Source: a virus
Taxonomy: Duplodnaviria; Heunggongvirae; Uroviricota; Caudoviricetes
Virus record (IMG/VR): IMGVR_UViG_2574180238_000002
DNA length: 25,422 nucleotides
Reading direction: 5' to 3' (one strand)
The number at the start of each line of letters is the position of its first letter. The stretch's first letter is position 1. Under the pieces are notes generated by a model. The model ran no database searches. It saw nothing but the letters and a program-made list of their open reading frames with translations, and had not been told where the DNA came from. This document shows positions 2,145-25,011 of this stretch, piece by piece. The position numbers and the translations under genes were made by a program.

Positions 2145-2155
2145 TTCTTGTCTCC

Positions 2156-2424: not shown

Positions 2425-2520
2425 ATCACTACCTCCAAAGCATGAGAGAGATGACAACGTAACATTGATTGGAGATTAACAATAGATTGCTGATGTAAAA
2501 GATATGTATAAGCTTCGCTT

Positions 2521-3788: not shown

Positions 3789-3945
3789 TTCTTCCCACTC
3801 CGCCACATCGCATTCAGATATTTGTTGTCATTAACAGAACCGAAACTCTTTCTCTTAAGCAATTCCTCTCTCGATGGCATTGGCTTTACGCGTTGGCGAA
3901 TAATCATTTCTGCCGGAAGAATGCCGGGATTGTATGCAAGTCCTC

Positions 3946-4236: not shown

Positions 4237-4246
4237 TGTTAATTCC

Positions 4247-4540: not shown

Positions 4541-4586
4541 TGGTGCTGGTATCGGATTGCTTGGCTCGTTGTTTTAAGGGGTAATC

Positions 4587-7837: not shown

Positions 7838-7851
7838 AAGATAAGATATAA

Positions 7852-8337: not shown

Positions 8338-8407
8338 ATGGTTAACTCTCCTTAGTTTTTCACAGGATATCATGAAGGCAATGCCATTTTAGCCGGAAAC
8401 TAGATTT

Positions 8408-8674
8408 CTATGTTTCCTTTTTATTATTGCTATACATGGTCTTAAGCGTTTCAAAAACCATTTTCTTAACCATATCAGATTGTTGTTCTGCCATACGCTC
8501 TGCATCGTCAATGTAAACTGATGCAGAGCTTTGTTTAGCCAATGATTCTTCAATCGCTGCAATTATCTCTGAGTTCAGCGACCTGTTATTCATCTTCGCG
8601 CGCTGTTTAATTTTCGCGTGGAGTTCATGCGGAAGTCTCAAGTGAAACTGCGCCTCGTCGTATTTGCTGTACAT
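8408..8674 (-). CDS. mnt: Mnt-like ribbon-helix-helix repressor
   Basis: 88 aa from ATG at 8674; aligns by eye with remembered P22 Mnt (..NGRS.NSE...DAER.A..QS..VKKMVF.TLK..Y). Confidence 0.7.
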   Translation of the reverse strand: MYSKYDEAQFHLRLPHELHAKIKQRAKMNNRSLNSEIIAAIEESLAKQSSASVYIDDAERMAEQQSDMVKKMVFETLKTMYSNNKKET

Positions 8675-8795
8675 CCTTGATGCCTCACCAGTTGGGTGGA
8701 ATGGCATCGTAACCTACTGGATAAATACTCAATAGTACCATTTCTGTATGCAATCACATCATGGTTGCATCATATCATTCGTCTGGAGCAATGAA

Positions 8796-10613
8796 ATGTC
8801 AGATATCACCGCAAATGTTGTGGTAAGCATGCCTTCTCAACTCTTCACTATGGCTCGTTCTTTTAAAGCTGTAGCCAATGGCAAAATTTATATCGGTAAA
8901 ATTGACACTGACCCGGTAAATCCTGAAAACCAGATTCAGGTTTATGTGGAGAACGAAGACGGCTCTCACGTTCCTGTATCGCAGCCAATCATCATTAACG
9001 CTGCCGGATATCCTGTATATAACGGACAGATTGCCAAATTCGTAACTGTGCAAGGCCATTCTATGGCTGTTTATGATGCATATGGGGCGCAGCAGTTCTA
9101 TTTTCCTAATGCGTTGAAGTGTTCCCCTGACCAGGGAATTATCAGGTTAAAAGAAGAAATTGCGAAAGATGATGGAGAGAAATATATCGGAATATGCCCT
9201 GACGTTTCTACACTCAGAACAATTGAGCCATCATTCGTCGGGCAAAATATAACTGTTCGTGGATACTACTCTGACACACCCGGGCTTGGGGGAGGAACGT
9301 TTATAGCCTTTTCCAGTTCTGAAGCTGACGATGGTGTGAATATTTTTGTTACCCCTGGCGGTAAGCGATGGAAGAGAGCAGGAAGCCACATCGATATTCC
9401 GGTAGAGAACGGTGGCATGATGACATCATGTACGGCTGAGCAAAACAGTGAAGCCTTTGAACGCCTGACTGCATGCCTTCCATATGAAGGAGGTACGCTC
9501 AGACTCAATGGATTTTACGGTATTAAGTATGGCGCTATCGTGCCTCCACGTGTCACGCTGGAGGGGTGCGGTATGGATTCCTGTGGATTAATTAAAACAG
9601 GTAACGATATTAAAACCGTTCCGGATCGCATGTGGCAGGGTGTACCACACAGCTTCTCCAAAGACTTTATTGTTGCGGTAGATATGGATAGTGACACATC
9701 AGGTGATTTAAGCGGGACACAAACAAGAAGCACCAGAATAATTGGATTGAGTATTCTAAATACTGCGCCCAATCCTTGTGATTACGGGATATATAGCGCT
9801 ATCAGTTACAATGTGCGCCTTCAGGACCTGTATATTCATAGGGTGAAAACCGGTTATCGCACTAGTGATAGTTGGTTGCAGACATGGGAAAACATTACTA
9901 TTCAGGATGTCGTTACTGGAGTTAAAATCGAAGCAGGTGGAACCACATATAATTTAAACAATATTTATGTGAAAACATGTTCAGGTGTTGCATATGATTT
10001 TAATAACATTACATATAGCAGCCTGACTTGTTTGGCTGCTGACTTCGTTAATGGTACTGGCTATAAATTTAAAGATTGTACTGGAGTGAATCTATCTGGA
10101 TGCGGAAGCGAAGAAGGCACTGGTAAAATATTTGATATAAATGGTAGTCGAATTAACGTAACTGCATTTAGAGGGGTTAATCATCATGATGGAGGAGTTG
10201 AAGCTGTATCTCTGGAATCGTGTTTCATCTCATTGGTTTCATCTCATTTTTCTAGTTACTCTGGAGTCTCATCTAGCAAATACATATATCTTAATAATGC
10301 AACTGCAAATTTTAATGGTACGGTAATTCCCGACAACACCACTGATTCTATTAGATGGGGTAGTGCGCAGAGCAGGATCAACAAGGTTGATTCAGGCGGC
10401 ACCTATAGTATAACCGGAAACTCATCATGGACTGCATTATGCAGACTTGAGTCAGGATATATAACGGTTCTATCAGTATCACCACCCACGGGAGATACAA
10501 CTAATTTCCCGTTTGGCACCAAGTGGGAATTGCTTGGTCAGGTTTATACCGGACCGTGGAAGTGGACATACGTATCAACTGGTGAATGGAAGGTATCCGC
10601 AACTACCACGTAA
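8796..10613 (+). CDS. tailspike with P22-type head-binding N-terminus and divergent receptor-binding domain
   Basis: [11 protein letters not shown]...[35 protein letters not shown]...[11 protein letters not shown] matches the remembered P22 gp9 N-terminal ~110 aa; the rest does not resemble P22 gp9. GGAG RBS. Confidence 0.85.
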
Positions 10614-10640
10614 AAAAAAGGGGCTTTCAGCCCCTTTTTA
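10612..10640. terminator. bidirectional rho-independent terminator
   Basis: aaaaaaaa-ggggct-ttc-agcccc-ttttta: perfect 6-bp GC-rich stem flanked by A-run and T-run, between convergent tailspike and acyltransferase genes. Confidence 0.65.
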
Positions 10641-10641
10641 T

Positions 10642-11685
10642 CTAATATCTGAATTTGTTTGATATCTTTTTCCCAATATCCATTGCTGGTTTTTCTATCG
10701 CAATAAATGATATCAGTCCAGCAATAAGTGATAGTGCTATGCATAAAACTTGATTTAAGTACAGGTTTATATCAGGTAATAACCTGAATGTTATCTGCTG
10801 TATTAAAAAGCCCCACAAGTAAACGCCATATGACACATCATGTTTTATTCTTACTGATTTTATTATTTTTGTTGTTGATAAATACACGAAAAATGTACAT
10901 GCGCAAAAGTAAAAAAGCATATGCTTGAGTGTTGGGTCTGACACAAAATTATATAATATTGCAAATCCTATTGGTGCATGTGGTGAAATGTATATTTTGT
11001 CCTTGTTTATAGCATACAATGCGCCAAGAGCAAAGCATGGAGCCATTAAAAACACATCTGCATTATCGTTATTTATAAAAATTAATTTGTTCCATCCCAA
11101 TACTGGAAGCGCTATTATTGATAAGCATATGATGCTAGGTATTATTCTTCCTCTGCTCTGAGTTATCATGTAGCATGCTAGGAGCACGACATAAGATGCA
11201 ACTTCATATGGTATTGTCCATAAGGAACCATTAACTGATCTTTTATATATATTTTCCTCAAAAACACCAGGAAGAAAAAATTGCATATCCAAATATGAGC
11301 TTTTAAATAGATAGCTGTACGTCAGTGTATCTTTTAAATAAGATGTCATTGAGTGCGTTGTAAGTAATGGTCCAACAATGAATGTCGCGAATAATAAAAC
11401 AAAAATGAATGCGGGGAATATTCTAAAAAATCTAGATGAAATAAAGTGTGGTATGTTGCGCGTTGTTAATAAACTATTAGTTACAAGCATTCCACTAATA
11501 AAGAAAAATATTTTTACAGCAATGGAACCAGTATATGTAAATGTGAAAACAGACTGAACCGGCTCCTGGGCTCCATCAGAATTTGCAAGATAATATGAAT
11601 GGGCAAATATTACAGAAATTGCACAAAAAATACGTATTAAGTCAAGGTTATTGTTATCCCTTTTTAGCGCATCTTTGACCAACAT
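10642..11685 (-). CDS. integral-membrane acyltransferase family 3 protein (O-antigen acetyltransferase-like)
   Basis: 347 aa from first ATG; multiple hydrophobic segments; N-terminal motif ...LDLIRIFCAISVIFAHS typical of acyltransferase-3/Oac-type enzymes; visibly AT-rich; sits where P22-like phages carry O-antigen conversion genes. Confidence 0.7.
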   Translation of the reverse strand: MLVKDALKRDNNNLDLIRIFCAISVIFAHSYYLANSDGAQEPVQSVFTFTYTGSIAVKIFFFISGMLVTNSLLTTRNIPHFISSRFFRIFPAFIFVLLFATFIVGPLLTTHSMTSYLKDTLTYSYLFKSSYLDMQFFLPGVFEENIYKRSVNGSLWTIPYEVASYVVLLACYMITQSRGRIIPSIICLSIIALPVLGWNKLIFINNDNADVFLMAPCFALGALYAINKDKIYISPHAPIGFAILYNFVSDPTLKHMLFYFCACTFFVYLSTTKIIKSVRIKHDVSYGVYLWGFLIQQITFRLLPDINLYLNQVLCIALSLIAGLISFIAIEKPAMDIGKKISNKFRY

Positions 11686-12075
11686 AAAAATCACCTAACT
11701 GTTTATTTTGAAGAGCATTGTATCATCAGATAGCCGCACTTTCACTCCCATCAGATCACCGTCAGAAATTATCATAAGCGCCAGTTCATCATGTGCAATT
11801 GCGTGCAAACAAAATATTCACTGCAGAGAGATTAAGTAGATTGATTCTACTGGGTTGGCATGAGACAAAACTGAGACACAGAAAGCTTTGCACTGGATTG
11901 CAAGGCTTTGTGCTCTCCTGTGGATGTGTGTCTACATGTTTGAAGATTGTTGTGCCGTATTTGTGACATACGCATGACAACATCATGCATCAACTTTCTG
12001 TTTGTGCCATCAACTATAGCTTAGTGAATGCGGTTAATGCTTGCTAAAACAGATAGTTATGATTGGTGCTACAGA

Positions 12076-12121
12076 TTCGTAATGCGAAGGTCGTAGGTTC
12101 GACTCCTATTATCGGCACCAT
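12076..12121 (+). other. partial tRNA-Thr 3' segment (anticodon loop to CCA): central att site of the tandem array
   Basis: ATTCGTAATGCGAAGGTCGTAGGTTCGACTCCTATTATCGGCACCA matches the 3' 46 nt of tRNA-Thr(CGU) as remembered; upstream bases do not form the tRNA 5' half, so this is not an intact gene. Confidence 0.7.
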
Positions 12122-12726
12122 CAAGAAAATCAATAACTTAGCTTAACTTCTCTAAGAAATTGTATCTTCTGTTATCACTTACAAACGCCTATACGTTGTT
12201 ATGGGCTTTGGTAGTGTAACACGTATGGGCGAGTAGTTCCCAGGCTCAACCTCGTAACAAGTTCCTTTGAAGCTGGAAGACGTGCCACCGTCTCTAAACC
12301 TTCTACCAAAACTCTTAGCAAGATGTTCCACACCTGGCGCGGTGTCCAATGATGCTACACGTCGTGAGACGTTGCAGAGGATAAACAGGCTAAATGATGG
12401 GAAGAGTTTTAAGTGCAATAGTGGATCAAAGCCCACCTCTTCAAAACCTAACTTGATCGGGAAAGAATCAAGCTCTAGCACGGTTTCGTCCACCGGAGTA
12501 CAACGGGTGCCTGATAAGAGAAGAACTGCTAAGACTTCATAGCTTTTGTGAAAAAGCCCTTTTTAGTGGATACGCCTACGGCGCTTATTTTTTGGTATAA
12601 CCATCAAAGGCGCTTTATGGCTCCTATTGTCTTGAAAATGTATCTTTACTTGTATTGTGTTTTATGCGTAGTCTCCCTGTGTAGTATGTAACTTGTTAAT
12701 TTTCATATGAATACAGAGGCAACACG

Positions 12727-12879
12727 ATGAAAAACATTGCAGCTATAAAACGTAATAACCGCAAGATTCACGCTCGTAAGTTCCTGTCTACGCCAGAAGG
12801 AAAAGCCTGGCTAGAGCGTAAACAGAGAGAGAACGAAGAAAGAAAACTCCTTAGTGAGTTGAAATGGCTTAAGGATTGA
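12727..12879 (+). CDS. small basic protein (50 aa), uncertain
   Basis: MKNIAAIKRNNRKIHARKFLSTPEGKAWLERKQRENEERKLLSELKWLKD; not in the ORF track (below its length cutoff); followed by a long hairpin. Confidence 0.3.
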   Translation: MKNIAAIKRNNRKIHARKFLSTPEGKAWLERKQRENEERKLLSELKWLKD

Positions 12880-13429
12880 ATCACCAGTAGGCGCATAACA
12901 CATCCAGCGATCAAAGATGTGTTTATGCGCCTGATAGTGAAATTATTAAAGTTTTTTAGTTAATGTAGCCATTGCATGAACGATGATCGCTAGTGAATCG
13001 ATTTTATCTCGAGGGGTAAAATAGATGAGGTATATGATGGTAACAATTACAGCTAAAGTAATTGTGGTTCTGCAGGTTTTTAAAATGGATAAGATAAAGC
13101 GCATAGATACCCCCTATTGATTTAACAACAATAAGGTATCATTTATTTTTTATTGCATGCAATGTGCAAATTTTCACATATAATAGCTTACTATTCACTT
13201 TGCATGGTGTCAACAAGATGATGTGTTGTTTTGTTTGATTTGTTCAAGATAATATTTCATTTTCTCATCTATATAACTTGTGTTTTAGATAATTTCACTA
13301 ATTGTAAAAGTTACGTATTGCTTAATAGCTGCCTTTTTATCTGAAATCGGCGCAAACGTGATCAATGTTTAACGCGAAGATCAGCGGCGTCAGGTCCACG
13401 CAGCGACAATTCTCAAATATCAGGAGGCA

Positions 13430-13981
13430 TTACGCTTCCTGCTCTTTCTTGATACGTTGCACCGTCTGTGTGCTGACACTGAAATCTTTTGCTACGCTCC
13501 GAATTGATCCACCATTCGCGAGAGCGGCAACAATTCCCGCTCGATCAATTGCTTTTCCATTACCACGTTTTGCTATACGTCCAGCGGCCTTAGCTGCGGC
13601 GATCCCCTCACGTTGCCGCTCAAGCATCATTTCACGTTCCATTTGTGCCACTGCTGCAAGCACTGTGAGCATCATATTCCCTGCGGGAGAGTTCTTCCCT
13701 GTCTTAAAGTCTTCTTTATGGAAATGCACAGACACGCCGCGCTCTGTTAATTGCTCAACCGTTGCCAGAAGGTCGGCTGTATTACGGCAAAGGCGATCAA
13801 TACTGTGAACATGCACAACATCACCTTCCCGCACATAGTTCATCATTGCCTCAAACTGTGGGCGCTGAGTGTTCTTGCCTGACGCTTTATCTTCAAAGAC
13901 TTTATCAAGAGTTACTCCAGCTAATTGACGGTCTGTGTTTTGTTGCACAGTCGATACCCTAATGTATCCAATATTAGCCAT
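13430..13981 (-). CDS. serine recombinase (resolvase/invertase family)
   Basis: MANIGYIRVSTVQQ... with the catalytic Ser context, DRL.R motif and C-terminal HTH (GGSIRSVAKDFSVSTQTVQRIKK); ~183 aa, typical of small resolvases/invertases; RBS 9 nt upstream of ATG at 13981. Confidence 0.8.
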   Translation of the reverse strand: MANIGYIRVSTVQQNTDRQLAGVTLDKVFEDKASGKNTQRPQFEAMMNYVREGDVVHVHSIDRLCRNTADLLATVEQLTERGVSVHFHKEDFKTGKNSPAGNMMLTVLAAVAQMEREMMLERQREGIAAAKAAGRIAKRGNGKAIDRAGIVAALANGGSIRSVAKDFSVSTQTVQRIKKEQEA

Positions 13982-14507
13982 TTTCATTTTCCTTCTGTGT
14001 TGATTTGTGTGTAGTGATTATTGATCGTGTTGATTAGGTGTGTAAAGGACTTTTTTCACTACGAAATTCGAAGGTTTTTAGTGTGGTGATTTAGCCTGCT
14101 TTATCACTACACGTCTTGCATGAGAATCATGTAGTTACATTTTGGTAAAATTAGCAAGCTATTAAATAGTGTGTTTATTTTGAAAAAATAATTTTTTGTT
14201 GCATTAAAGGAAACTTGTTCGACAAATAATAGATTGATTTTTAATCAACAATTTCTGATAGTGCTCTGTAAGCCGTATTACACAAGGCTTTGCGAAAGTG
14301 ATGTAAAAGTGAAGAAAGCTAACATTGCACTTTTTAAGCTACTTTTCATTGGATTTTTACGTAGGAATTACACAGGGATTAATCATCAATTACATTGAAT
14401 TTAAGCCTGTTTTAGATGTTTAATTTTGGTAGCAAGAAACACTTTTAGAAGATCATTGCACAGATGTTATGTGATAAATGGATGTAACGGTAGGTCACTG
14501 TGAACTA

Positions 14508-14644
14508 CCCCCACAGAATTCTGTTATCCTTAACTTTTAAAGAAATATGCACCCTAACAGAAAACTGTTACCCCAACCCTAACAGAATTATGTTAGATAC
14601 CCCCACAGAAAACTGTTAGCCACCCCTACAGAATTTTGTTACCT
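14508..14644. repeat. array of five ~23-bp iterons, each a TAACAG-N4-CTGTTA palindrome preceded by a C-run
   Basis: Cores at 14513-14526, 14557-14570, 14582-14595, 14605-14618, 14628-14641; four of the five start 23 bp apart. Confidence 0.65.
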
Positions 14645-14756
14645 ATTAGATCAACTATCAAACTACAATTAAATTATCTTTTATAAATTCTTTTATCTTT
14701 AAAGAATAATTAAGTGATACCCGTTAGGGAGTCTTCGACTATCCCTTAATCTATTG

Positions 14757-15033
14757 GCATTCGCCAGAACCTTGCACAAGTTAGAGTGTTAGTCGTTAGA
14801 CTGCTTGTCATAACACATAGTTTTTGTTTGTTGATGTTAGTTAGTAGATCTATGTTCGCTAATGCCGCTCACAACGAATATGTAATCTACTATGTGCAAA
14901 TAGCCTACGGCTTGCGTAAGGCTAAATAGTCTATGCGCTGTGCGCTTCAATAGTTCCATTGATGAGGCTTACGCCAATCTAACGATCATCAATCATCTAA
15001 AATAAATTTCTTGTGCAATGTTCTGGCGAATGC
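14757..15033. repeat. 24-bp inverted-repeat pair flanking a 229-bp segment
   Basis: gcattcgccagaaccttgcacaag (14757-14780) versus reverse complement of cttgtgcaatgttctggcgaatgc (15010-15033): 23/24 identity. Confidence 0.55.
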
Positions 15034-15339
15034 AATTAGAGTAGCGTTACCCCTTTGGGGATGCTAACGCATAACTATAGATCAACCATCAAACAGACAA
15101 AAAAGAAAAATATGGTTTAAAGATGTTAGGTAGTAGATGAGATTCTACCGCTTAAATCAAGCCGTAGGCGAGCTAAACAGCCTCTACATAAGGGAATGTA
15201 TTGTATTTATCAAAACCTCGTCAGAGGGCGTTTTAGAGCGTTTTAGAGAATAAGGAAGAATAGGAGCACTCTTAAGAGCACGAATTGCTAAGAAAAATTA
15301 TAACACACTGAAAATGATCAATATTTTTATGGCTAGGGG

Positions 15340-15368
15340 TTGACAAAAGCTTTTAGTCGTGGTAAAGT
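15340..15368 (+). promoter_or_regulatory. candidate sigma70 promoter for the 15492-17800 operon
   Basis: TTGACA (15340-15345), 17-bp spacer, TAAAGT (15363-15368). Confidence 0.4.
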
Positions 15369-15491
15369 AATATTAGGGACAGAAAACATTCTTATCCTCT
15401 AAGTAATTAAACCAATGCACCGCACTTTGAAGCCCAACAAGGCTTGCAAGGTGTTTTTTCTTTTAACCAAATAGAATAAGGAGGCTAATTA

Positions 15492-15668
15492 ATGAAATAT
15501 TTTACTCCACAGGATGTAGTTGAAGCCTGGAAACGTGGTGAGATTAATCGTTTTAAAGTAAGGATGAACAGGAACACAGCGCGACGCTGTGGTTATCCAG
15601 AGCGTGAAAAATGCTTTGACGATGCACTAAAAATTATTGATGAACTGCGTAAGGCAGAGAAAGAATAA
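15492..15668 (+). CDS. small protein (58 aa), unknown function
   Basis: Strong SD AAGGAGG upstream of ATG; MKYFTPQDVVEAWKRGEINRFKV...; first gene of a co-directional operon. Confidence 0.5.
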   Translation: MKYFTPQDVVEAWKRGEINRFKVRMNRNTARRCGYPEREKCFDDALKIIDELRKAEKE

Positions 15669-15689
15669 TAACAGGAGAAGGAGAAAACT

Positions 15690-15860
15690 ATGAGCGAAAC
15701 TACAGAAAAGAAAAGACAACCACGCACTTGCTTTCATATTCCTGATGAAGTATTTCAGGTGTTGTTTAAAGAAGCCAGAAGTAAACGTATCACTGTTACA
15801 GATTACATTCTTGATATGTTGAAAAGAGAGGCTGAAACACTCTCAAACAAAAGCAAGTGA
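15690..15860 (+). CDS. small ribbon-helix-helix-like DNA-binding protein (56 aa)
   Basis: SD AGGAGAAGGAG; sequence RTCFHIPDEVFQVLFKEARSKRITVTDYILDMLKRE fits a beta-strand then two helices as in CopG/Arc/ParG-type RHH proteins (by-eye secondary-structure pattern). Confidence 0.5.
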   Translation: MSETTEKKRQPRTCFHIPDEVFQVLFKEARSKRITVTDYILDMLKREAETLSNKSK

Positions 15861-15913
15861 TTTTTATCACCATAGTAGCGCCGTAGAGCGTGATTACATC
15901 AAGGAGATTTTTA

Positions 15914-16483
15914 ATGATTAATGAAGAACAATTTGTAAAAGTTCCTATGTGGATTCTAAAAATAAGCCAAGTAAACGGACATAAATTTACAGATAGTGCT
16001 AAAAACCTTTACTGCTATCTGAGAGGGTTTGATCGTGCATTTCCCTCTTACGCTAAGATAGGCGATGTTTTTGGCATAACACCAAGAGCAGCAGAAGAAA
16101 GGGTTAAGAAATTGCTCGAAATGGGATTAATTATAAAAGATGCACGACCAGGAAGCTCTAACCTTTATCGAGTGCTTGATATTCCAAAAGGAGAATCATC
16201 ACTACCTGATCCTTCTGAGAAAGAAGACGAATCTAATGAAATATTGAATGTTTCCGAAATCATCGTTGAAGAAGAAACACAAGAGCCAGAGTTCCCTGAG
16301 CGGCCCGAAATTTTTACTTGGCTTCTTTCCCTTGATAAGAAGAAACCACCGCACGAAGAAACAGAAGATTTTGTAAAACGAGCATTAGATTCAAAGAATA
16401 TCTATCTTTGTGAAAATGATTTTGACTCTTTGATAATTGATCTCAAAAGTGAGAGCACAATATATGATTCACTACCCTTCTAA
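15914..16483 (+). CDS. predicted winged-helix DNA-binding protein with acidic C-terminal tail
   Basis: ATG at 15914 with AAGGAG RBS; N-terminal ~90 aa has a wHTH-like pattern (..AKIGDVFGITPRAAEERVKKLLEMGLI..); C-terminal half highly acidic. Confidence 0.55.
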   Translation: MINEEQFVKVPMWILKISQVNGHKFTDSAKNLYCYLRGFDRAFPSYAKIGDVFGITPRAAEERVKKLLEMGLIIKDARPGSSNLYRVLDIPKGESSLPDPSEKEDESNEILNVSEIIVEEETQEPEFPERPEIFTWLLSLDKKKPPHEETEDFVKRALDSKNIYLCENDFDSLIIDLKSESTIYDSLPF

Positions 16484-16492
16484 GGAGAATAA

Positions 16493-16750
16493 ATGACTTA
16501 TAACATCACTATAGGAAACAAAACTATTGAAATAACTGAAAGCGGATACAACATTTTAAAAGCTATTTTGGACATAGAGTTTTCACCACCGACAGTGGTT
16601 AGCTTTTGTAGTTTAGGCGGCTACAGCGCACAACACGTAAATCATTTTACATCGTTCGGTGTGCTGGATTATGAAGGGATTAACAGCACTACATTTCGTC
16701 TTTTGAAATTAAACAAAGATTTTGAATTGTTTCTCACAAACAATCAATAA
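16493..16750 (+). CDS. hypothetical protein (85 aa)
   Basis: AAGGAG RBS; same-strand operon context. Confidence 0.5.
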   Translation: MTYNITIGNKTIEITESGYNILKAILDIEFSPPTVVSFCSLGGYSAQHVNHFTSFGVLDYEGINSTTFRLLKLNKDFELFLTNNQ

Positions 16751-16847
16751 CAACAGATCGGGCAATACATATGGCAAATGCATTTATGGCGATATTCATC
16801 GTAACAATGGCGTCCAGTTTTTATAATCCACATAAAAAGAGGGAAAA

Positions 16848-17231
16848 ATGGGAAGAAAGAAAAAGAACAACTTAAAACGTATTGAAAAAAACAGTAATTT
16901 CAATTCAAAAAGACAACGTCCACCGACACACACCAATAACGAAATTCCAGGGGAAGAGATAATCTTTATTCTTGAAACAGAATCCCCTGAATTAAGTGAT
17001 GAAGAATTAGAAATAATCCAATCAATGCCAGGCGTTTACTTTCGCCCAAGAACAAGAAAACAAACTATCATTTCTGATGGCACTCTGAAACGTTGGCAGC
17101 TTTTAGGGTTTAGCTCCTATCATCATTTTTTGGGATTTAACGCTTTCAATAATTGTGTAGGTGGTGCATCGGAAGTCGATCTGATGGCTCATTTAGAAGA
17201 TACATTAGCTTCTAACAAACGTTCTAACTAA
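16848..17231 (+). CDS. hypothetical protein with basic N-terminus and acidic middle (127 aa)
   Basis: RBS AGAGGG; N-terminal Lys/Arg-rich stretch followed by an acidic segment. Confidence 0.5.
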   Translation: MGRKKKNNLKRIEKNSNFNSKRQRPPTHTNNEIPGEEIIFILETESPELSDEELEIIQSMPGVYFRPRTRKQTIISDGTLKRWQLLGFSSYHHFLGFNAFNNCVGGASEVDLMAHLEDTLASNKRSN

Positions 17232-17246
17232 TAAAATGATGGGTGT

Positions 17247-17492
17247 ATGTATAAGCGCCCAATGAAAATATTCAAAAAAGGAAAAATAATGATTGGCTAT
17301 ATTCAAGAAACACAATTATTTCAGATGATCCTGTCTGATGCAAAAAACTATGCAGAGTTAATTCGGCTGGCAAAAGAAACAGAAGACTACGAAGCATTAG
17401 AGCGTTACCGTGATGAAGTGCTGACGCTCAAGACACCTTTTAACATCGTATTGAATATGATTAATGATGCATTACAAGGAGAATACGCATAA
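17247..17492 (+). CDS. hypothetical protein (81 aa; alternative start at 17289)
   Basis: ORF with better RBS (AAGGA) before the internal Met at 17289; stop overlaps the next start (ATAATG). Confidence 0.45.
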   Translation: MYKRPMKIFKKGKIMIGYIQETQLFQMILSDAKNYAELIRLAKETEDYEALERYRDEVLTLKTPFNIVLNMINDALQGEYA

Positions 17493-17800
17493 TGGAAGAA
17501 GATATTAGCAATGCAATGGAACAACTTTTAGAACTGACTATCTCACTACAAACAAGAATAAATCAAGCCTATTCAGATTTATGCGATTACACGCTCTCTC
17601 AATGCGTTATTAGCTTAATGAAGGTGAATGTAAGCCTTGACGATTTTATCTCTCTTGGGAGCGATTTAGAGCTATCAGAGGACGATGCAAAACAGTGTAA
17701 TCAAATCATCACAGACATCGCCACCACGTTAAAGGTTGCAAGTGAAGAGATTCAGCAATTAGTAGATGATTTAGCAAAAAGTGCTATTTTCTCTAAATGA
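17492..17800 (+). CDS. strongly acidic small protein (102 aa)
   Basis: AAGGAG RBS; about 19 Asp/Glu versus about 6 Lys/Arg by count. Confidence 0.5.
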   Translation: MEEDISNAMEQLLELTISLQTRINQAYSDLCDYTLSQCVISLMKVNVSLDDFISLGSDLELSEDDAKQCNQIITDIATTLKVASEEIQQLVDDLAKSAIFSK

Positions 17801-18642
17801 TAATGAAAATTATTTGCATTTATAATGATTTTGTTATATAATAATTTTAGGGGTAGATAAAAAGATTTTAGTTGGTGTTAATCCTTCTACTGTCATAAAT
17901 CCCTGCATATGGAAGGTGATAGCCTCAAAGGTTGAGTGGCATTAACCTCTAACAAATATTACCTTCCATCTCTCAAGAAGTTTTAGAATAATCATAACTC
18001 CCTCTTTGATTGTTGATTGTTTCTACGTTGTGTTGATGAATGTTGTTAGGCATTGTGCTTAATTTTGATAAAAGCGGGTAGGTGTTATCTCCTTGCCCTT
18101 CCCGCTCTTATTTTTCATCTATGCTTATCCTAAAGCTCCTTATTTTGTCAGAAAACATTAAAGAGCCTTACACTGATAGTTATATTTTATAACTATTTAC
18201 TAACATCATTAAACTATTATTTAATGACAGAAGTTAGTAACAGAATAATCTATTAAGTTGTTGTCAAAAACAATCATCTGCATAGCGTTAGCCGCAAGCA
18301 GAGAGAGTTTAGCTAAGAATGGTGCAATAAACTTTGGAAATATTGATAGCAAAACGGGTTTTATAGAATGCGGATCTATAAGCTTTGGTTGTAAAAACGA
18401 TTTTCTGAAACGGTAGATTACTGTTGGTGTAGTTAATCATTATTAAAAATTTAATCTGTGAGTAGATTGGAATAGTGATTCCTTAAAATCTGACTGGTGC
18501 ATCCACACCATGAAAGATAGCGGTTGGCCACCGCGCCCCGAATAGATATTCCTGATTGATTCCGCATGTTTTCCTAAGAGCATGTTTTCAGGAGTATCTA
18601 TTCACCCTTTAAGCATATCATCAAGTATATTTAAAAAGTGTA

Positions 18643-18671
18643 TTTGCTGATATGTTTAATCCTCTTATAGT
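18643..18671 (+). promoter_or_regulatory. candidate sigma70 promoter for the 18785-23366 operon
   Basis: TTTGCT (18643-18648), 17-bp spacer, TATAGT (18666-18671); weak -35, good -10. Confidence 0.3.
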
Positions 18672-18784
18672 TTAACTTATCAATTATGTAATTGCCCGCA
18701 CGTTAAAGCCCCTTTGCTGGTCAGAATTAACCTCTTACGGCATTGGGGCTTTTTATTTGTCTGGCACTAACAGGAACATTATTT

Positions 18785-18982
18785 ATGAAACAAGAAATGA
18801 TTATCAGCAAAGACGGGGAAACGATGATTGTTAGTGATGAAAACCTCATTAAGGTTGCCGCACTGTTGGGAGTTACTCCCGAAAGTCTTCGTTCTACCAC
18901 TGCTCAATTATTTAAATCGGCTGATGCGGTTAGTCTTGCTGATGCCCTTAAATCTAAAATTAAACAACTGAAAGGAAAATAA
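18785..18982 (+). CDS. hypothetical protein (65 aa)
   Basis: AGGA RBS before ATG at 18785; first gene of the second operon. Confidence 0.45.
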   Translation: MKQEMIISKDGETMIVSDENLIKVAALLGVTPESLRSTTAQLFKSADAVSLADALKSKIKQLKGK

Positions 18983-18986
18983 TCTT

Positions 18987-19370
18987 ATGGCTAACCCATA
19001 TGGAAAATTAAAAGCAGTGAATGCGGATAACTCCCGTTCACGCTGTAAGGTAGTAGCTTACGCTGCTGATCCAGTGCTGCAAGATCGCCTCGTCAAACTG
19101 GCTTCACCTCTCACTGACGATCTTATTGTCGGGGCTTTGCTGAAAGCCGATGGCACCAAAGCAACAACCGCATCTGATATTGCTCACGTAGTAGTTGAAC
19201 CGGCTTATGAAGGACAGGAAAGCGTAGTGGTTGCACATCCTACTTTCGTTATTCTGGCTGAAGATGGGATTGAATTTAACAGCATGGAAAAGGCAAGTGT
19301 TATTGCAAAACTGCAATCTCTCGGCTTTGTAATTGCTGGTTATGAAGAACTTGCGATCCCTACGACTTAA
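18987..19370 (+). CDS. hypothetical protein (127 aa)
   Basis: AAGGA RBS; tightly spaced with neighbours (4-14 nt intergenic). Confidence 0.55.
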   Translation: MANPYGKLKAVNADNSRSRCKVVAYAADPVLQDRLVKLASPLTDDLIVGALLKADGTKATTASDIAHVVVEPAYEGQESVVVAHPTFVILAEDGIEFNSMEKASVIAKLQSLGFVIAGYEELAIPTT

Positions 19371-19384
19371 CAAGGAAAATAATA

Positions 19385-20416
19385 ATGAATGATTTATCAA
19401 CATATTTTGGCGTTAATACTGCGGTAGTAACTCCATTTGCTTATGAGAATGCACTTAATACCCTGATTACTAATCTCGATCTGTTCGATGTGCAATATCA
19501 TACAGAAAACAGCATTCTTCTTACCGACCTGATTGATCAGTTTGTGCAGGTAGCTGGGGAAACCTCGCCTTACGCTCAAAGCGACTGGAACGCCTCTAAA
19601 CGTCAGGAATGGTCAAACAAACTTTTCCAGATGAAACACGTCGGCAGTATTAACGCTGTTACTTCTCGTGACCTGGAACAATACAGCCGCCAATATCCAA
19701 ACCGTTCTGATGCTATGCTGGTAGCGGTTAATGATTTCTCTGAGGCTCATTACCGTTCACACGCAAACCGTGTTGAAGTGGATCTGATTACCGCGCTGCT
19801 GGGCCTGAAAGTTGAATCTGAATATGCCGGACAAGGTGATCTCGACTTCCTCGACGGTCAGGCTAAAACCACGGTACCCGCTATCGACTTTGCATCGACT
19901 ACTGTTAACCCGTTCCTTGCTATTCGTAAAGCGGTGCGCTTACAGAGTGAAAAGCTGGGGTCTGGTCTTGCTGCAAAGCGAACTGGTGTAATTATCTTTG
20001 CTGCTGGCACTGCTGCTGATGGTTTGTCATCTAACCCGCTGATCAGTGACATGGTGAAATATGCAGGCGATGCGAGTGCTACGGCCCTGTTTACCCGTAT
20101 GGTTGATTCTAACCCAGCCTATGACTCTTTCCAGATTGGTGGGATCACTGTTATTGATGTGTCAATGTTTCCTGAGATTGTTGCTCACATCGGAGAGAAC
20201 GGTTTCGCAATTGTTCCGGTAATGGATAAAGCGGCACAGTGTTACCAGCTTCATAGCGGCGTTGGTGTGCGTCATGCTGAGTTAGGTCAAGATGCCGTGT
20301 TGCATCACCAATATCTAATCAAGGATGAATTCCAATTCCCATCTGTGGTTACTGAGACATCTTATCTGCCAGTAAACAACATTCCGCAAGCTATCATCTT
20401 CGGATCTGCTGCGTAA
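19385..20416 (+). CDS. hypothetical protein (343 aa), function unknown
   Basis: AAGGA RBS; no signal peptide or recognisable catalytic motif by eye. Confidence 0.55.
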   Translation: MNDLSTYFGVNTAVVTPFAYENALNTLITNLDLFDVQYHTENSILLTDLIDQFVQVAGETSPYAQSDWNASKRQEWSNKLFQMKHVGSINAVTSRDLEQYSRQYPNRSDAMLVAVNDFSEAHYRSHANRVEVDLITALLGLKVESEYAGQGDLDFLDGQAKTTVPAIDFASTTVNPFLAIRKAVRLQSEKLGSGLAAKRTGVIIFAAGTAADGLSSNPLISDMVKYAGDASATALFTRMVDSNPAYDSFQIGGITVIDVSMFPEIVAHIGENGFAIVPVMDKAAQCYQLHSGVGVRHAELGQDAVLHHQYLIKDEFQFPSVVTETSYLPVNNIPQAIIFGSAA

Positions 20417-20567
20417 TAAAGCGTTAATAGACGATTCCCCATCGGGGCAATAAGGGTAAAGGGATTAACTAACCTGTAGGCGCAAATACAGTAACGAATC
20501 TCTTTGCCCTTTTTGTTTTTCTACTGTCTACAAACCCAAATAAAAATATATATGTGAGAGAAAACCA

Positions 20568-20765
20568 ATGAATACAGAAAACCCACAATCCTTTATTCTT
20601 AAAGCTGTAAAAGAACTGGCAGCTATTAGCGAGGAATCAGTTATAAACACATCGGCGCTTTGCCGCCTTTTAGAAATTGATGCAAATAATGTGCGCCAGC
20701 GTGTCTTTCAGACTGGGTGCAGCACTTTCGAAGCAATTCAATACTATTGCTCTAAAAAACAATAA
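20568..20765 (+). CDS. hypothetical small protein (65 aa)
   Basis: ORF in operon context; weak RBS. Confidence 0.4.
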   Translation: MNTENPQSFILKAVKELAAISEESVINTSALCRLLEIDANNVRQRVFQTGCSTFEAIQYYCSKKQ

Positions 20766-20799
20766 TAAACAACAATCATAATACAGGGAAACAATTAGC

Positions 20800-22641
20800 A
20801 TGTTAGAACTTAACGTCAGCCGCTTATCAAACGTTGTCACCTTCCAGGTTGATCGACCATCATTAGAGAAAGCAAAAGCAGAAGTAGAAAAACTTCGTAA
20901 ACAAATGGCGGCGGTGAAAGATATAGAATTGCGTGTTAAGACACATAAACAATCAACTTCTAAAGCAAAAAAAGACGTAGACGATATTGCTAAAAAGCAA
21001 GCACAGGCAGATAAAGCCAATGCTAAAGCACAATTAGCCGCTCAACGTGTAGTTGCAAGAGAACAAAAAGCCCTGGCAGCACGCAAAGAGAAGGCAGACT
21101 TAAAACTGTTAGACGTTGGATCAAGCATTAGTGCATTGCACCGCCTTTCTGTAGCGGAACAATATAAAGCTATTGCACAGGCTAGAGAAATTGCCCTCCA
21201 ATATGAAAGAGGAGCTATTAGTCTGGCACGTATGAATAGCCAAATGAAACGCCTACAACAGCAACAACGTAAGATTAATGGCAATCGTAACGCTCACGCT
21301 AAAGCCTATGCACCTGTTAAGGGTAGCGGGAGTATTGGCGGCGGTGCTGCGGCTGTTATGCTGGGTGGCTTAGGCGCTGGCGCTACGTATATGGCTATGA
21401 GCAAAGCCTCTGAATTTGTTACTAACAGCTTTGCGAATGCTGAAACGCTGGGTGAATTGTATAGCCGTGCGAAGCTGGGCGGTGTAGACGTTAACCAGAT
21501 GAACAATATTGAGCAATGGGCCTACAAAAACGGCGTTGATTCAATGATGGGGGATCAAGGTAAACGTAAGTATCTCGATCAGATGAAAGATGTGCGTGAG
21601 CGTGCAACCAAAAGCTATGATGAGGCTGAATATGTAGTCGATAAAAAAACAGGCAAAGGTGAATGGAAGGGCGGCGATAGCGGCATCAATACTTTAATGA
21701 ATGAAGGATTCTTAACTAAAAAGGATCTAAAAGACTTTGCTGATAATCCGGCTGGTCTGGTTAGTAAAGCAGTTCAGGGAATGGTGAAGAAAGGCTATTC
21801 AGATGCACAAATCGGTAGTCGTCTGGAAGATCTGGCTGATGATTTGATGCTCACCTCTAAATACTGGACACGCTCCGCTAAAGAAGTGGAACAATCAGCA
21901 CGAGAACAACTAGAATCAGGGCGCTGGGTAACACAGGCACAACAGGAAAGCGTTATTAAATTCCGTGAACTGAATAATGCACTTAGTGGGCTTTCTGACT
22001 CACAAGGGATCGCCTTTGTTGATGGCTTTATGAAATCTCTTGATCCGAAAGTGATTGAAGAGTTTAAAAAGAGCATGGTTGCAATGCTGCCAATGTTTAC
22101 CAAATTAGGCGAGGCTATCGGCGGATTGGTTAACGCCGTAATGAAAACAATCAACTGGCTGATGAAAAACGACGAGAAGACGGAAGCTATTCAGAAGAAT
22201 TTAGGGGATGCACCGCCACTATCTAACGAAGGAATGAAGCAGAATCTTTCTAATCTCACTCCTGATCAATATAAAGGCGCTGGCACCGGAACAACTAAGC
22301 CAGATAACAGCAATTCCCTGGTTAACACTATTAAAAGCTGGTTTATGCCAGAAGAAACGGTAGGTGGGGCGCAGGCTGTAAATCAATACAGTCTCGAAGG
22401 ACAAAACATTGCAAATCTGAAACAGAGTGCAGCACAACAAGCTTTCAAGGCTCCTTCTTACACCTTTGCACCTGTTATTAACTTCAATCCAGAATTACAA
22501 GTAAATGCAGAAGTGCCGCTAACTATCGAATCAGACACCGGACGATTGAGCGAATTTATCGACTTCAAATCAAAGGCATCCTCCGCTGAGTTTAGCAAGC
22601 TATTAACGCTGGGTGTTATGTCAGGCGGGTCAACCTATTAA
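20800..22641 (+). CDS. large coiled-coil protein with Gly-rich hydrophobic segment (613 aa)
   Basis: AGGGA RBS; N-terminal ~170 aa Lys/Ala/Gln-rich heptad-like sequence; GSGSIGGGAAAVMLGGLGAGATYMAM resembles a glycine-zipper membrane segment. Confidence 0.6.
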   Translation: MLELNVSRLSNVVTFQVDRPSLEKAKAEVEKLRKQMAAVKDIELRVKTHKQSTSKAKKDVDDIAKKQAQADKANAKAQLAAQRVVAREQKALAARKEKADLKLLDVGSSISALHRLSVAEQYKAIAQAREIALQYERGAISLARMNSQMKRLQQQQRKINGNRNAHAKAYAPVKGSGSIGGGAAAVMLGGLGAGATYMAMSKASEFVTNSFANAETLGELYSRAKLGGVDVNQMNNIEQWAYKNGVDSMMGDQGKRKYLDQMKDVRERATKSYDEAEYVVDKKTGKGEWKGGDSGINTLMNEGFLTKKDLKDFADNPAGLVSKAVQGMVKKGYSDAQIGSRLEDLADDLMLTSKYWTRSAKEVEQSAREQLESGRWVTQAQQESVIKFRELNNALSGLSDSQGIAFVDGFMKSLDPKVIEEFKKSMVAMLPMFTKLGEAIGGLVNAVMKTINWLMKNDEKTEAIQKNLGDAPPLSNEGMKQNLSNLTPDQYKGAGTGTTKPDNSNSLVNTIKSWFMPEETVGGAQAVNQYSLEGQNIANLKQSAAQQAFKAPSYTFAPVINFNPELQVNAEVPLTIESDTGRLSEFIDFKSKASSAEFSKLLTLGVMSGGSTY

Positions 22642-22688
22642 TCATCACTGTGGGGCTGTTTAGCCCCCTTAAATAAGGATTACAAATT

Positions 22689-23366
22689 ATGGCAATGGGT
22701 CCGTTAACCATTGGTCGCCCGACTGAGGCGAAAATCAACAGCACAAGCAACGATAGCAACGGTAGAACAACCAAAGGGGGTAACGGCTTTGCGATCATTA
22801 CCTCTAATCTCGGCAGTGGTGCAAATGCTGCTTACAATGACTACCAGGCATTATCATTTGATAGCGTGGAATCGACGAAAGTTAGCAGAAATGCGGACGT
22901 TACAAGCTATGCCGTCGAATCAGGATCAGAAGTTAGTGATCATGTTCAAATACGGAATAACAAGTTCACATTACAAGGGCGTATCTCTGAAACCGTATTG
23001 AAGCTCAATCCTGATATGATTAAGAATGCTGGAATTAACGGCAATCGACGTATGCTTATGCTTGAATACCTAAATCAGTTGATGGACAGTCGCCAACCTT
23101 TCCTACTTGTCACTGAGTTAAAAAATTATGACAACGTTGTGTTAGTTGGCATGTCTTACGAAGAAGAAGCAAGCGAAAGCCTATTGTTTACTCTTGATTT
23201 TGAGCAAATCCGTCTTGTCTCTAAAGCAACTACAAGCGCAATTGCGGTAAAAACAGCACCAAATAAATCTGTAGGAGGCCAGGTTAAAATGCAGGTAAAT
23301 ACAACAGAACAGAAAAATCAAAAAAGCCCAGGGCAAGACGTTGTAACGCCAGTATTTAAACAATAG
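22689..23366 (+). CDS. hypothetical protein (225 aa)
   Basis: AAGGA RBS; preceded by a ggggct-gttt-agcccc hairpin. Confidence 0.55.
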   Translation: MAMGPLTIGRPTEAKINSTSNDSNGRTTKGGNGFAIITSNLGSGANAAYNDYQALSFDSVESTKVSRNADVTSYAVESGSEVSDHVQIRNNKFTLQGRISETVLKLNPDMIKNAGINGNRRMLMLEYLNQLMDSRQPFLLVTELKNYDNVVLVGMSYEEEASESLLFTLDFEQIRLVSKATTSAIAVKTAPNKSVGGQVKMQVNTTEQKNQKSPGQDVVTPVFKQ

Positions 23367-23446
23367 CCTTAAACGCCTATGAAACGCTCTGTAACGAGAT
23401 AATCATAAAAGAGGCATCAGCCTATATTGAAGCCTCTTTATTACGT

Positions 23447-24724
23447 CTATAGCGTTGTTTTACGCCTTAAATTTGATTTTTTATTGATTGATAAGCCTTT
23501 CTCTATTTCAGGGTAGCGTAAAAGCTCAATATATTTTTTAAGCTCTATTGGAGAAGCTGCATTTTTGCTATATGTGCGGAATGTTTCTGTATTGCCGCGT
23601 GTATGGCCCAGGAGAAGGGCGATCCTGTCTTCTGGAATTTGATTTCGATCAAGAAGCTGTGCTACTCCGTGTCTCAGAGAATGAAACACTTTCCTTTCTG
23701 TTCCCTTTTCCCCTAAAGCCTTTCGTTTAGCTCTTGTAAATCGTTGTGTATGCCACGTAGAGCGTTTACCGTCAGCACGTTCTGTAATGCTGGCGTGATA
23801 GAACAAAAAGCCATTGTGAGGCTTTTCACGCAGCGACAACACCAACGGAGTGATAAGGTTATGCACAGGCACAACACGTGCCGCAGCTTTCGTCTTTCCC
23901 TGTGTGATTTCAAAACACAGCACACCTTCGATCTCTTTCACATCGTCTATTGTGAGACTTGCTATCTCATTGATCCGCATACCTGTATATAAACCGATAA
24001 GACACAAAGCCGTCATTTCTTTGTTTTCTGCTGAATTACCGGAAAATACTTGCAACACCTGCAATAGCTCTTTGTTAGAAAATGCCTCGTAGCTCTCTCT
24101 ACTTTGTGCCACATCAAGCCTATGCCCTCGCCAGGGGGAGAGCGCCCTTTCTGGCGCATCGTGGTAACGTGATGAAGCTAATTCCCATAGCTGGGCCATT
24201 GGACTGATATAATTTGCAATTGATTGTTGTGAAAGAGTTTTTTGCATGTGTTCAATCCAGCCTGTAACAGTGGTGCGGCTTACATCTTGCAATGCAATAT
24301 CAGGCTTTTTACGGTAGGAGAGAAACATCTCTACCGCTTTTCTTGCCTTAGCTAAAGTGGCTGGCTTCTTCTTCGTGCTGTTAATTGTCAGGTAGATTTC
24401 AAGAATTTTAAGCAATGACGGACACGAAGACGCTGTATCTTGCACTCTGGTAGCTGTTTTGGCGTATTTAGCCTTACTGCGTAACAGTTCCAGCGTGTTT
24501 TCTATTGTGCTGTTTACAGGGGCAACACTCTCCCGTAAGCAATGGTATTCATCTGCAATCTGATCACGCTTTCTACGTGCAACACGAAGATTACTTGTGT
24601 GTAGACTTCTGACAAACGTCCTTTTTCCTTCAAAAAAGGGCTGCATATACACAGGCAGCGTGATCCTTAAATAGTAGTTACCGTAAGAATCACAGATTAA
24701 GTATTGGTTAGGCTTGTATCTCAT
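23447..24724 (-). CDS. tyrosine integrase of the second element (P4-type size, about 425 aa)
   Basis: C-terminal catalytic-domain pattern (..HSLRHG..LLGHT..TFRTYSK.. consistent with the R/H-x-x-R/Y region); GGAG RBS before ATG at 24724 (track ORF extends to a TTG at 24811); adjacent to the tRNA-derived repeat. Context resembles thrW-associated integrases such as IntF of E. coli K-12. Confidence 0.8.
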   Translation of the reverse strand: MRYKPNQYLICDSYGNYYLRITLPVYMQPFFEGKRTFVRSLHTSNLRVARRKRDQIADEYHCLRESVAPVNSTIENTLELLRSKAKYAKTATRVQDTASSCPSLLKILEIYLTINSTKKKPATLAKARKAVEMFLSYRKKPDIALQDVSRTTVTGWIEHMQKTLSQQSIANYISPMAQLWELASSRYHDAPERALSPWRGHRLDVAQSRESYEAFSNKELLQVLQVFSGNSAENKEMTALCLIGLYTGMRINEIASLTIDDVKEIEGVLCFEITQGKTKAAARVVPVHNLITPLVLSLREKPHNGFLFYHASITERADGKRSTWHTQRFTRAKRKALGEKGTERKVFHSLRHGVAQLLDRNQIPEDRIALLLGHTRGNTETFRTYSKNAASPIELKKYIELLRYPEIEKGLSINKKSNLRRKTTL

Positions 24725-24823
24725 AAAATCTCCGGCTAAAGTGTCGGAGCGTTTGTAATGTGAAAATTGATTGTGACGCATAGAAAATGATGATTTTTCT
24801 ATAAGATTCAATCAATTAGTAAT

Positions 24824-24885
24824 GGTCGTAGGTGATGGCATTAACACGAGATTAATCGAGTGTTTTACTCCTATTATCGGCACCA
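24824..24885 (+). other. degenerate pseudo-tRNA / right att of the second element
   Basis: 19-nt exact match to the tRNA-Thr 3' end (ACTCCTATTATCGGCACCA, 24867-24885), plus an upstream 10-nt tRNA-like piece (GGTCGTAGGT, 24824-24833) separated by non-tRNA sequence. Confidence 0.6.
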
Positions 24886-25011
24886 TTAAAATCAAAGAGT
24901 TACCCCATATTTAAATACACCACGTTTCCTCCTGTGCCGTATTTGTGCCATTGTAACCTTGGCAATTCATCAAAATACTGTTCTGACATCAGGCAGTGCA
25001 GGTGCAGACAT

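Follow-up and report, generated by a model that had tools for sequence, protein, structure and literature searches.

Head and tail genes of a putative satellite of Stephanstirmvirinae phages in a 12.8-kb island of Escherichia coli

Phage-inducible chromosomal islands that form capsids (cfPICIs) are satellites with a core of portal, prohead protease, head-tail adaptor/connector, HNH, TerS, TerL, AlpA and Pri-Rep genes, tail genes being 'forbidden' (PMC10085698). Another group, 224 'putative E. coli phage satellites', comes from a prediction of the Seed laboratory (PMC10448857; NAR Genom Bioinform 2023, its Fig. 8 and Table S6) that started from the phage nucleases of Inny, Muut and Mt1B1_P17; these elements of about 13 kb have genes for an integrase, a tape measure, a component of the baseplate, and decoration and capsid proteins. 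Here we analysed the virus record IMGVR_UViG_2574180238_000002, a stretch of 25,422 nt (the window, to which all coordinates refer), and especially its second operon (operon 2, 18785-23366), six open reading frames (ORFs) on the same strand. This operon sits in a 12.8-kb island (12102-24886; 12,785 bp between 20-bp repeats). From its sequence, operon 2 is quite probably the virion-hijacking module of an integrative satellite of Stephanstirmvirinae. These phages (phAPEC8-like Phapecoctavirus and Justusliebigvirus) are virulent myoviruses of about 150 kb. The demonstrated part of the analysis comprises the anatomy of the island, the identities of its proteins, their conservation and two sequence links to phages.

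Operon 2 encodes proteins of 65, 127, 343, 65, 613 and 225 aa, and the same six genes are given by the RefSeq annotation of identical copies. An earlier reading made from the letters alone (the sequence-only reading) had described the six products as uncharacterised, the gaps as tiny and the ribosome-binding sites before two successive genes as near-identical. The last point is borne out by AAGGAAAATAAT, found immediately 5' of the start codons of both the 127-aa and the 343-aa genes. The gaps between successive genes are 4, 14, 151, 34 and 47 nt, so that the second point holds only in part. The first had to be given up, as a major capsid, a tape measure and a Dit-like protein were recognised among the products.

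The 343-aa protein (19385-20416, plus strand) is, judging by sequence and model comparisons, an HK97-fold major capsid protein of the lambda gpE type. It has homologues across Enterobacteriaceae at 42-56% identity, and 10 out of 15 close homologues match PF03864 (Phage_cap_E; best E 1.6e-8), while the window protein itself falls below Pfam detection. Its family profile aligns with the capsid protein of Justusliebigvirus PHB05 with 81% hhalign probability over 235 columns, and the protein matches phrog_29 with E 5.5e-5. The AlphaFold2 (AF2) model is of low confidence (predicted local distance difference test, pLDDT, 52), there being no more than about 24 clusters of homologues, and it was used as supporting evidence only. 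The top Foldseek matches of this model are all HK97-fold phage capsid proteins, with the ICP1 coat protein first (8g1r, E 3e-7), then those of phiTE, Bas63 and Sf14. Foldseek, hhalign and the PF03864 matches of the homologues therefore agree with the capsid fold that had been guessed for this protein.

Global alignment gives about 20% identity between the island capsid and that of PHB05, with short conserved motifs. Two of these, LDLFDVQYH and DFASTTVxP, lie at 19457-19510 and 19880-19915 (residues 25-42 and 166-177) and are common to the window-type island capsid and the E. coli phage capsid, being absent from Klebsiella-type island capsids. A recent recombination as their origin was considered and rejected, since the third codon positions have diverged (6 of 18 and 5 of 12 identical). 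This divergence of the synonymous sites suggests that the motifs are constrained interaction surfaces instead.

The 613-aa protein (20800-22641, plus strand) is a tail tape measure protein. It matches phrog_16051 (tail length tape measure) with E 1e-33 over residues 154-611, and it is 29% identical to the PHB05 tape measure (E 5e-28) in an alignment that includes the extreme N-terminus, where the first 33 residues reach 45% identity to the phage protein. The homology runs from end to end, both termini being conserved. Phage tape measure proteins typically hold hydrophobic segments; here a charged helical N-terminal third is followed by the Gly/Ala-rich hydrophobic stretch GSIGGGAAAVMLGGLGAGATYMAM, and this layout, together with the phrog_16051 match, bears out the tape-measure-like architecture first seen by eye. 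Among 50,697 phage records, tblastn found relatives of this protein in 134, all of them Stephanstirmvirinae-type phages of about 145-150 kb. The 225-aa protein encoded next (22689-23366, plus strand) is a Dit-like tail-tube initiator/baseplate protein, matching Pfam Dit_like PF21821 with E 1.2e-27 and 97 bits (cut-off 24.2). It is 49-53% identical to the product of the gene directly 3' of the tape measure gene in Stephanstirmvirinae (49% in PHB05), and the succession of the two genes is the same in island and phage. Two of the six genes are consequently tail genes, against the earlier statement that none accompany the 613-aa protein. In one related island (L004, NZ_CM184343), the orthologue of the tape measure (11235-13076) appears in RefSeq as a 'flotillin family protein' and the initiator as a 'LexA family transcriptional regulator', which are probably mis-annotations.

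The order of these genes is that of the phage structural module. PHB05 has a decoration gene (130 aa), the capsid gene (333 aa), eight genes for neck, sheath, tube and chaperone, a 57-aa ORF, the tape measure gene (660 aa) and the Dit-like gene (238 aa). Operon 2 follows this order with the middle missing and forms a colinear subset of it (L032 was compared too); its 127-aa protein (18987-19370, plus strand) has the position and size of the phage decoration gene product. Clear homology to a known morphogenesis cassette, which the sequence-only reading had taken as evidence against its own proposals, is literally what was found, operon 2 corresponding to a subset of the Stephanstirmvirinae module. 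By its sequence, this homology likely points to the helper and not to a prophage fragment.

All six operon-2 genes have ratios of nonsynonymous to synonymous substitution (dN/dS) of 0.06-0.36, obtained from moderately diverged pairs with dS partly saturated, and the value for the 127-aa gene is 0.18. Since all six are under purifying selection, these ORFs are real genes. Operon 2 can thus be described from sequence comparison as a set of diverged, selection-kept homologues of four presumed helper virion proteins in the order of the helper, with the decoration protein placed by position.

The island around operon 2 is a discrete element, with both attachment (att) sites, an integrase, iterons and an initiator. 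The att sites are exact copies of the 20-bp direct repeat ACTCCTATTATCGGCACCAT on the plus strand, attL (12102-12121) at the 3' end of a tRNA-Thr (thrW) fragment and attR at 24867-24886; the fragment (12076-12122) matches the thrW 3' end in thousands of E. coli genomes. Next to attR lies an IntF-like tyrosine integrase gene (23447-24811, minus strand; Pfam DUF6538 and Phage_integrase), found at the same position in all variants. A repeat search revealed five 23-nt iterons (ACCCnnACAGAAnnnTGTTAnCC; 14507-14644, plus strand), a putative replication origin to which all 5 occurrences of the core ACAGAAnnnTGT in the window are confined. Operon 1 (15492-17800, plus strand), for regulation and replication, encodes a 58-aa protein, an Arc-like protein of 56 aa (15690-15860, plus strand; phrog_582, E 0.011), an O-like/RepA_N-type replication initiator (15890-16483, plus strand; phrog_270, E 1.2e-8; Pfam HTH_36) and four small proteins. 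With Pfam and PHROGs we found no portal, protease, terminase, sheath, tube, lysis, baseplate wedge or fibre genes in the island or in the examined variants, and the earlier remark that terminase and portal are lacking was correct.

The non-structural half of the island was compared by blastn with the 50,697 phage records, and two kinds of match were obtained, both in Stephanstirmvirinae. The first lies in the 5' part of the initiator gene, where 15873-16227 is 98.6% identical over 355 nt to the DNA of Phapecoctavirus Mt1B1_P17. At the protein level, residues 1-105 of the phage protein gp053 (328 aa) are identical at 104 of 105 positions (99%) to residues 9-113 of the island initiator, its DNA-binding domain. 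Its residues 119-226 share 75% identity with the initiator of L011, a second island variant of E. coli, and its C-terminus shares 35-47% identity with over 100 phage proteins that carry the annotation of homing or GIY-YIG endonucleases. The Odn nuclease of ICP1 has the same chimeric architecture, and it binds and cuts the origin of the satellite PLE (PMC8263062). By analogy with it and by its sequence, gp053 appears to be an Odn-like chimera, a predicted nuclease with a captured DNA-binding domain of an island initiator.

The second match is an 83-nt element (13344-13426, plus strand), a candidate mimic of the packaging site, where a terminase recognises and cuts the DNA. It is about 81% identical to at least 60 Phapecoctavirus genomes, across the boundary of their direct terminal repeat. 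In KKP 3954, which has an exact 309-bp repeat at the ends of the record, the element spans the start of the right-hand copy, and in WPEC4 it spans the boundary of a 328-bp terminal repeat. For the related phage BME3, a direct terminal repeat of 342 bp was determined with PhageTerm (PMC12210895). That the element would lie near record ends as an artefact of where assemblies were opened was considered, and it is countered by the exact 309- and 328-bp repeats from two laboratories and by the repeat of BME3. Mapped onto the repeats of KKP 3954 and WPEC4, the equivalent cut position in the island falls between 13378 and 13379, bordered by the perfectly conserved blocks TTAACGCGAA and CGTCAGGTCCACGCAGCGACAATTC. 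The whole element is conserved in four islands (L001, L004, L011 and L024) and its core is kept in three others (L003, L009 and L031), with no RNA structure found in the 83 nt (z = +0.4 and -0.3). The element is likely, from these sequence comparisons, a packaging-site mimic recognised by the helper terminase.

Islands of the same architecture were found in Escherichia, Klebsiella, Enterobacter, Kluyvera, Kosakonia, Citrobacter and Pseudenterobacter at different chromosomal sites, two of them in Escherichia, and most of the members from other genera lack the Dit-like gene. At least part of the operon-2 block is carried by 572 of 5426 complete E. coli genomes (about 10%). The size of the islands is constrained to 10-13.5 kb across the family. 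In 100,044 species-representative genomes, a pattern-limited scan recovered 9 loci with the tape measure family, namely 8 islands and one phage-like contig from a metagenome-assembled genome, and no prophage turned up in it.

The variants reveal a shuffling of the head genes. Two E. coli variants whose integrases are 98.8% identical share 62% identity in the tape measure and 59% in the Dit-like protein, and only 19% in the capsid and 24% in the protein at the decoration position. A third variant has the backbone of the window (invertase, o1 and o5) at 98-99% identity, yet the other capsid type. Two types of capsid/decoration cassette, 19-24% identical to each other, have been swapped on near-identical backbones. 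In Citrobacter sp. NCU1 (L027 and L028, NZ_NRDO01000039), two islands of the family stand in tandem, about 13 kb apart, with different cassette types. The island of Pseudenterobacter timonensis (L031) has an insertion of about 2 kb that breaks the tape measure gene into two (9995-14329), and this copy is probably inactivated. In a further island (L010), operon 1 contains the Dit-like gene (6786-7424), which is thus not found 3' of the tape measure gene, and the place of the O-like initiator is taken by a DEAD-helicase-like protein of 506 aa (4810-6330) that ends in a helix-turn-helix (HTH).

The sequence-only reading had offered three options for operon 2. Its capsid-hijacking satellite module is favoured by the att sites, the capsid and tail homologues, the links to phages and the missing virion genes, and its membrane-targeting effector system received no support. 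We suggest the following course of events for such a satellite. Infection by the helper would lead to excision of the island and to its replication at the iterons, driven by the initiator. Operon 2 would then be expressed, possibly through read-through of a hairpin 26 nt upstream. The island capsid, probably together with the 127-aa protein, could build satellite-sized heads on the portal, protease and scaffold of the helper, or else it could co-assemble with the helper capsid protein and alter the size of the head. The island tape measure and Dit-like protein would be incorporated into helper baseplates and tails, and the helper terminase would recognise 13344-13426 and package the island DNA. 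Some helpers would counter with Odn-like nucleases that bear the captured DNA-binding domain of the island initiator.

Our more detailed version of this proposal is tentative, and we would sooner expect it to need revision than to hold in full. It combines small heads made of the island's own capsid on helper portal, protease and terminase, replacement of the tape measure (in E. coli also of the tube initiator) and mimicry of the terminal-repeat cut site. If it were true, no earlier satellite would have been shown to exploit a virulent coliphage that has direct terminal repeats, and the 10-13.5-kb size would be explained as the constraint of a small capsid.

Several points weigh against a satellite. 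Induction, excision, replication, packaging and transfer are all predictions made from sequence. The 127-aa protein is a candidate head decoration protein by its position alone: its matches are weak (a BLAST motif with E 0.003, phrog_2680 with E 0.068), hhalign gives a probability of 0.8%, and the AF2 model (pLDDT 44) is unusable. HHpred labelled it 'Dec' in the earlier survey (PMC10448857). With a capsid about 20% identical to that of the phage, a fit with the helper's portal, protease and scaffold is putative, and the model gives no reason for the island to have its own tape measure. The recognition of the 83-nt element by the terminase is inferred, and for the boundaries of the terminal repeats the sources are deposited records and a single PhageTerm report instead of mapped ends. 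The C-terminus of gp053 has weak Pfam matches to T5orf172 and MUG113, below the gathering thresholds. Both DNA-level links to phages were found for E. coli islands only; a Klebsiella island showed neither the Odn-like nor the 83-nt link, its tRNA-Gly alone being matched. Finally, no match to virome particles was obtained, every viral-contig match being a provirus call from an isolate genome or a long contig.

The best-surviving alternative, still rather improbable to us, is that of an anti-phage defence island, whose capsid, tape measure and Dit-like protein would poison, as dominant-negative subunits, the building of heads and tails by invading Stephanstirmvirinae, while transfer would be incidental or absent. 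That the diverged structural homologues keep the termini and motifs likely needed for co-assembly would agree with it, as would the Odn-like chimera borne by phages, a sign that they are harmed by the island, but defence alone leaves the att sites, the integrase, the replicon and the 10-13.5-kb size without explanation, and likewise the terminal-repeat-boundary mimic and the spread over seven genera. PADLOC finds no known defence system in the island. PLE both protects its host and spreads (PMC8263062). Defence is compatible with the satellite model and not exclusive of it.

Far less credible, and strongly disfavoured, is a decayed prophage fragment, the remainder of a morphogenesis cassette that now has no function. 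The island stands beside a gutted P22-like prophage at thrW, it came within an IMG/VR provirus call, and its genes have homologues in a structural module of phages. The site thrW is a prophage hotspot. The related phages are virulent, though, and 8 of the 9 loci of the scan are islands and none is a prophage. The same gene subset in the same order is repeated in seven genera, purifying selection acts on all six genes, both att sites are intact, and a predicted phage nuclease is aimed at the island replicon. Nor did we find Stephanstirmvirinae-type prophage genes (terminase, portal, sheath, tube, baseplate, lysis) or their pseudogenes in the island, whose ORFs are intact. Least probable of all is a self-sufficient system (a particle like a gene transfer agent or a tailocin, or a membrane-targeting effector around the 613-aa protein), which might be imagined from the hydrophobic Gly/Ala-rich segment of that protein and from capsid and tail proteins being encoded together, since the absence of portal, terminase, sheath, tube, baseplate wedge, fibre and lysis genes from every variant precludes an autonomous particle, and the 613-aa protein is homologous throughout to phage tape measures.

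Other features of operon 2 and of its leader are worth describing. Neither of the 65-aa proteins could be assigned to a family. The first, s1 (18785-18982, plus strand), opens operon 2 at the same position in all variants; it looks helix-turn-helix-like by eye and has a dN/dS of 0.20, with no match in Pfam, PHROGs or NCBIfam. The second, s4 (20568-20765, plus strand), has a dN/dS of 0.36, and its Klebsiella orthologue gives weak HTH matches. The 151-nt gap 3' of the capsid gene (20417-20567) contains an imperfect hairpin with a T-run (GGGTAAAGGG...CTCTTTGCCCTTTTTGTTTTT), which may be an attenuating terminator that divides the operon into head and tail sub-operons.

The hairpin 5' of operon 2 (18705-18758, plus strand) has a U-run and the shape of an intrinsic terminator, with a folding energy of -22.6 kcal/mol (-11.5 to -24.8 kcal/mol for the equivalents in other variants). 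Alignment and folding placed a hairpin with a U-run just 5' of operon 2 in all 9 island variants examined. In the window, 26 nt lie between it and the first start codon, and a control of the operon by read-through is plausible. Further upstream, a leader block at about 18470-18535 is kept among the E. coli island variants. It includes the hairpin GCGGTTGGCCACCGC, which is changed in a compensatory manner in L011 (GCGATTAGCCATCGC); the minus strand has a terminator-like call, and the block may be a small RNA. No known RNA family was found in the island at E <= 0.1, and promoter and terminator consensus matches in it are no more frequent than in shuffled controls.

A dyad GTAAC-N6-GTTAY around the operon-2 leader is confined to an island subfamily from Enterobacter, Citrobacter, Kluyvera and Pseudenterobacter (L008, L009, L025, L027, L028 and L031). 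There are mostly two dyads per island, one just 3' of operon 1 and one just 5' of operon 2 (for example, L028:7407-7421 and 7987-8001), and L008 has a single copy, the one 5' of operon 2. The pair may be a subfamily-specific operator pair. As a helper-activated late promoter the dyad was rejected, since neither the window nor either of the two phage loci has it, and hence it gives no link to phages.

Between the 83-nt element and the iterons lies a gene for a Hin/Gin-type serine DNA invertase of 185 aa (13430-13987, minus strand; Pfam Resolvase, E 8.9e-39; phrog_125, E 4.5e-62). A 34-nt inverted repeat, 88% complementary (14747-14780 and 15010-15043), surrounds 229 bp between this gene and operon 1. 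It looks like an invertible promoter switch, but this idea is not supported, since a query with the flipped segment found none of 352 E. coli genomes in the flipped state.

The P22-like prophage that adjoins the island (700-11700) is a separate element. Its genes (709-11694) start with a truncated integrase (709-1485) and early genes of the Ea22/DUF551 and DUF5405 types, followed directly by injection proteins (Inj_translocase, 4587-5993, and an ORF of 615 aa), by a tailspike that has a Head_binding domain (8748-10613) and by an acyltransferase gene (10642-11694). The entire region from replication to head is missing. The named elements at thrW, Sp1 and Sp2 of O157 Sakai and CP4-6 of K-12, were discarded as counterparts of the island, being different and having only the position of an IntF-type integrase in common with it.

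Among known systems, the E. coli satellites predicted in 2023 belong to the same family as the island, with no difference in kind (PMC10448857). The island agrees with them in its size of about 13 kb, att repeats beside a tRNA gene, an integrase next to att and an initiator domain matched by an Odn-like nuclease, and in its gene set of capsid, tape measure, baseplate component and decoration protein (by position), with other virion genes absent. Four genomes that carry 100%-identical copies of 18700-23400 (CP009050, CP023061, CP016828 and CP013185) are listed in Table S6 of that report. The island family is already known as a bioinformatic prediction, and the suggestion in the sequence-only reading that it might be something new has to be withdrawn. 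The 2023 report makes no mention of terminal repeats, of a packaging-site mimic, of colinearity with a helper module or of members outside E. coli and close relatives, and for the phage nucleases' second DNA-binding domain it reports that no match in a satellite was detected (PMC10448857). The 83-nt terminal-repeat mimic, the colinearity of the module and the spread beyond E. coli thus appear to be new. Our analysis also adds the 75% match of the second domain of gp053 to L011, the shuffling of capsid cassettes, the purifying selection on six genes, and members in six further genera, mostly lacking the Dit-like gene.

Phapecoctavirus and Justusliebigvirus phages are often isolated as therapy candidates. 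The choice of phages and the prediction of their host range would be affected by an island that may block them and by odn-like phage genes that may defeat it. Testable handles on how a satellite can exploit a short-terminal-repeat phage are given by the candidate packaging-site mimic and the satellite tape measure.

Like the cfPICIs, the island encodes its own major capsid protein, and both occur in Enterobacteriaceae; it differs from them in that none of the cfPICI core genes was found by Pfam or PHROGs in the window and variants, and in the presence of two tail genes. A precedent for a tape measure owned by a satellite is given by the EPIPs of Mycolicibacterium, for which altered tails are reported (bioRxiv 10.64898/2025.12.02.691453). 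Compared here by description and not by homology, EPIPs differ in having no capsid genes, a prophage as helper and actinobacterial hosts. Names in NCBIfam and known defence systems gave no relevant matches for the island.

P4 carries a copy of the packaging site of its helper P2 and is packaged by the helper terminase. The island shares with P4 this concept of a packaging-site copy, and it differs in the type of helper, with short direct terminal repeats in place of cos packaging; Pfam and PHROGs gave no matches in the island to the P4-type genes Psu, Delta, Sid, alpha-primase and AlpA.

The likeness to PLE of Vibrio cholerae and its phage ICP1 covers several traits. In both cases a small integrated island is associated with a large virulent myovirus and has an iteron origin and an initiator of the RepA_N type. 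In both, a chimeric phage nuclease combines the DNA-binding domain of a satellite initiator with a nuclease domain, T5orf172 in the case of Odn (PMC8263062), the island's case being known by sequence. The ICP1 coat protein is also the best structural match of the island capsid model. We found no PLE-type matches by Pfam, PHROGs or PADLOC, with no PLE sequences compared directly. PLE remodels the coat of its helper with the external scaffold TcaP (PMC10945586), whereas the island encodes its own capsid. It further differs in its own tape measure and Dit-like protein, its tyrosine recombinase as integrase and its host, and PLE is experimentally established while the island is known from genomes. 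Should these islands be true satellites, E. coli would have in them a counterpart of the PLE-ICP1 system of cholera, parasites of large virulent phages.

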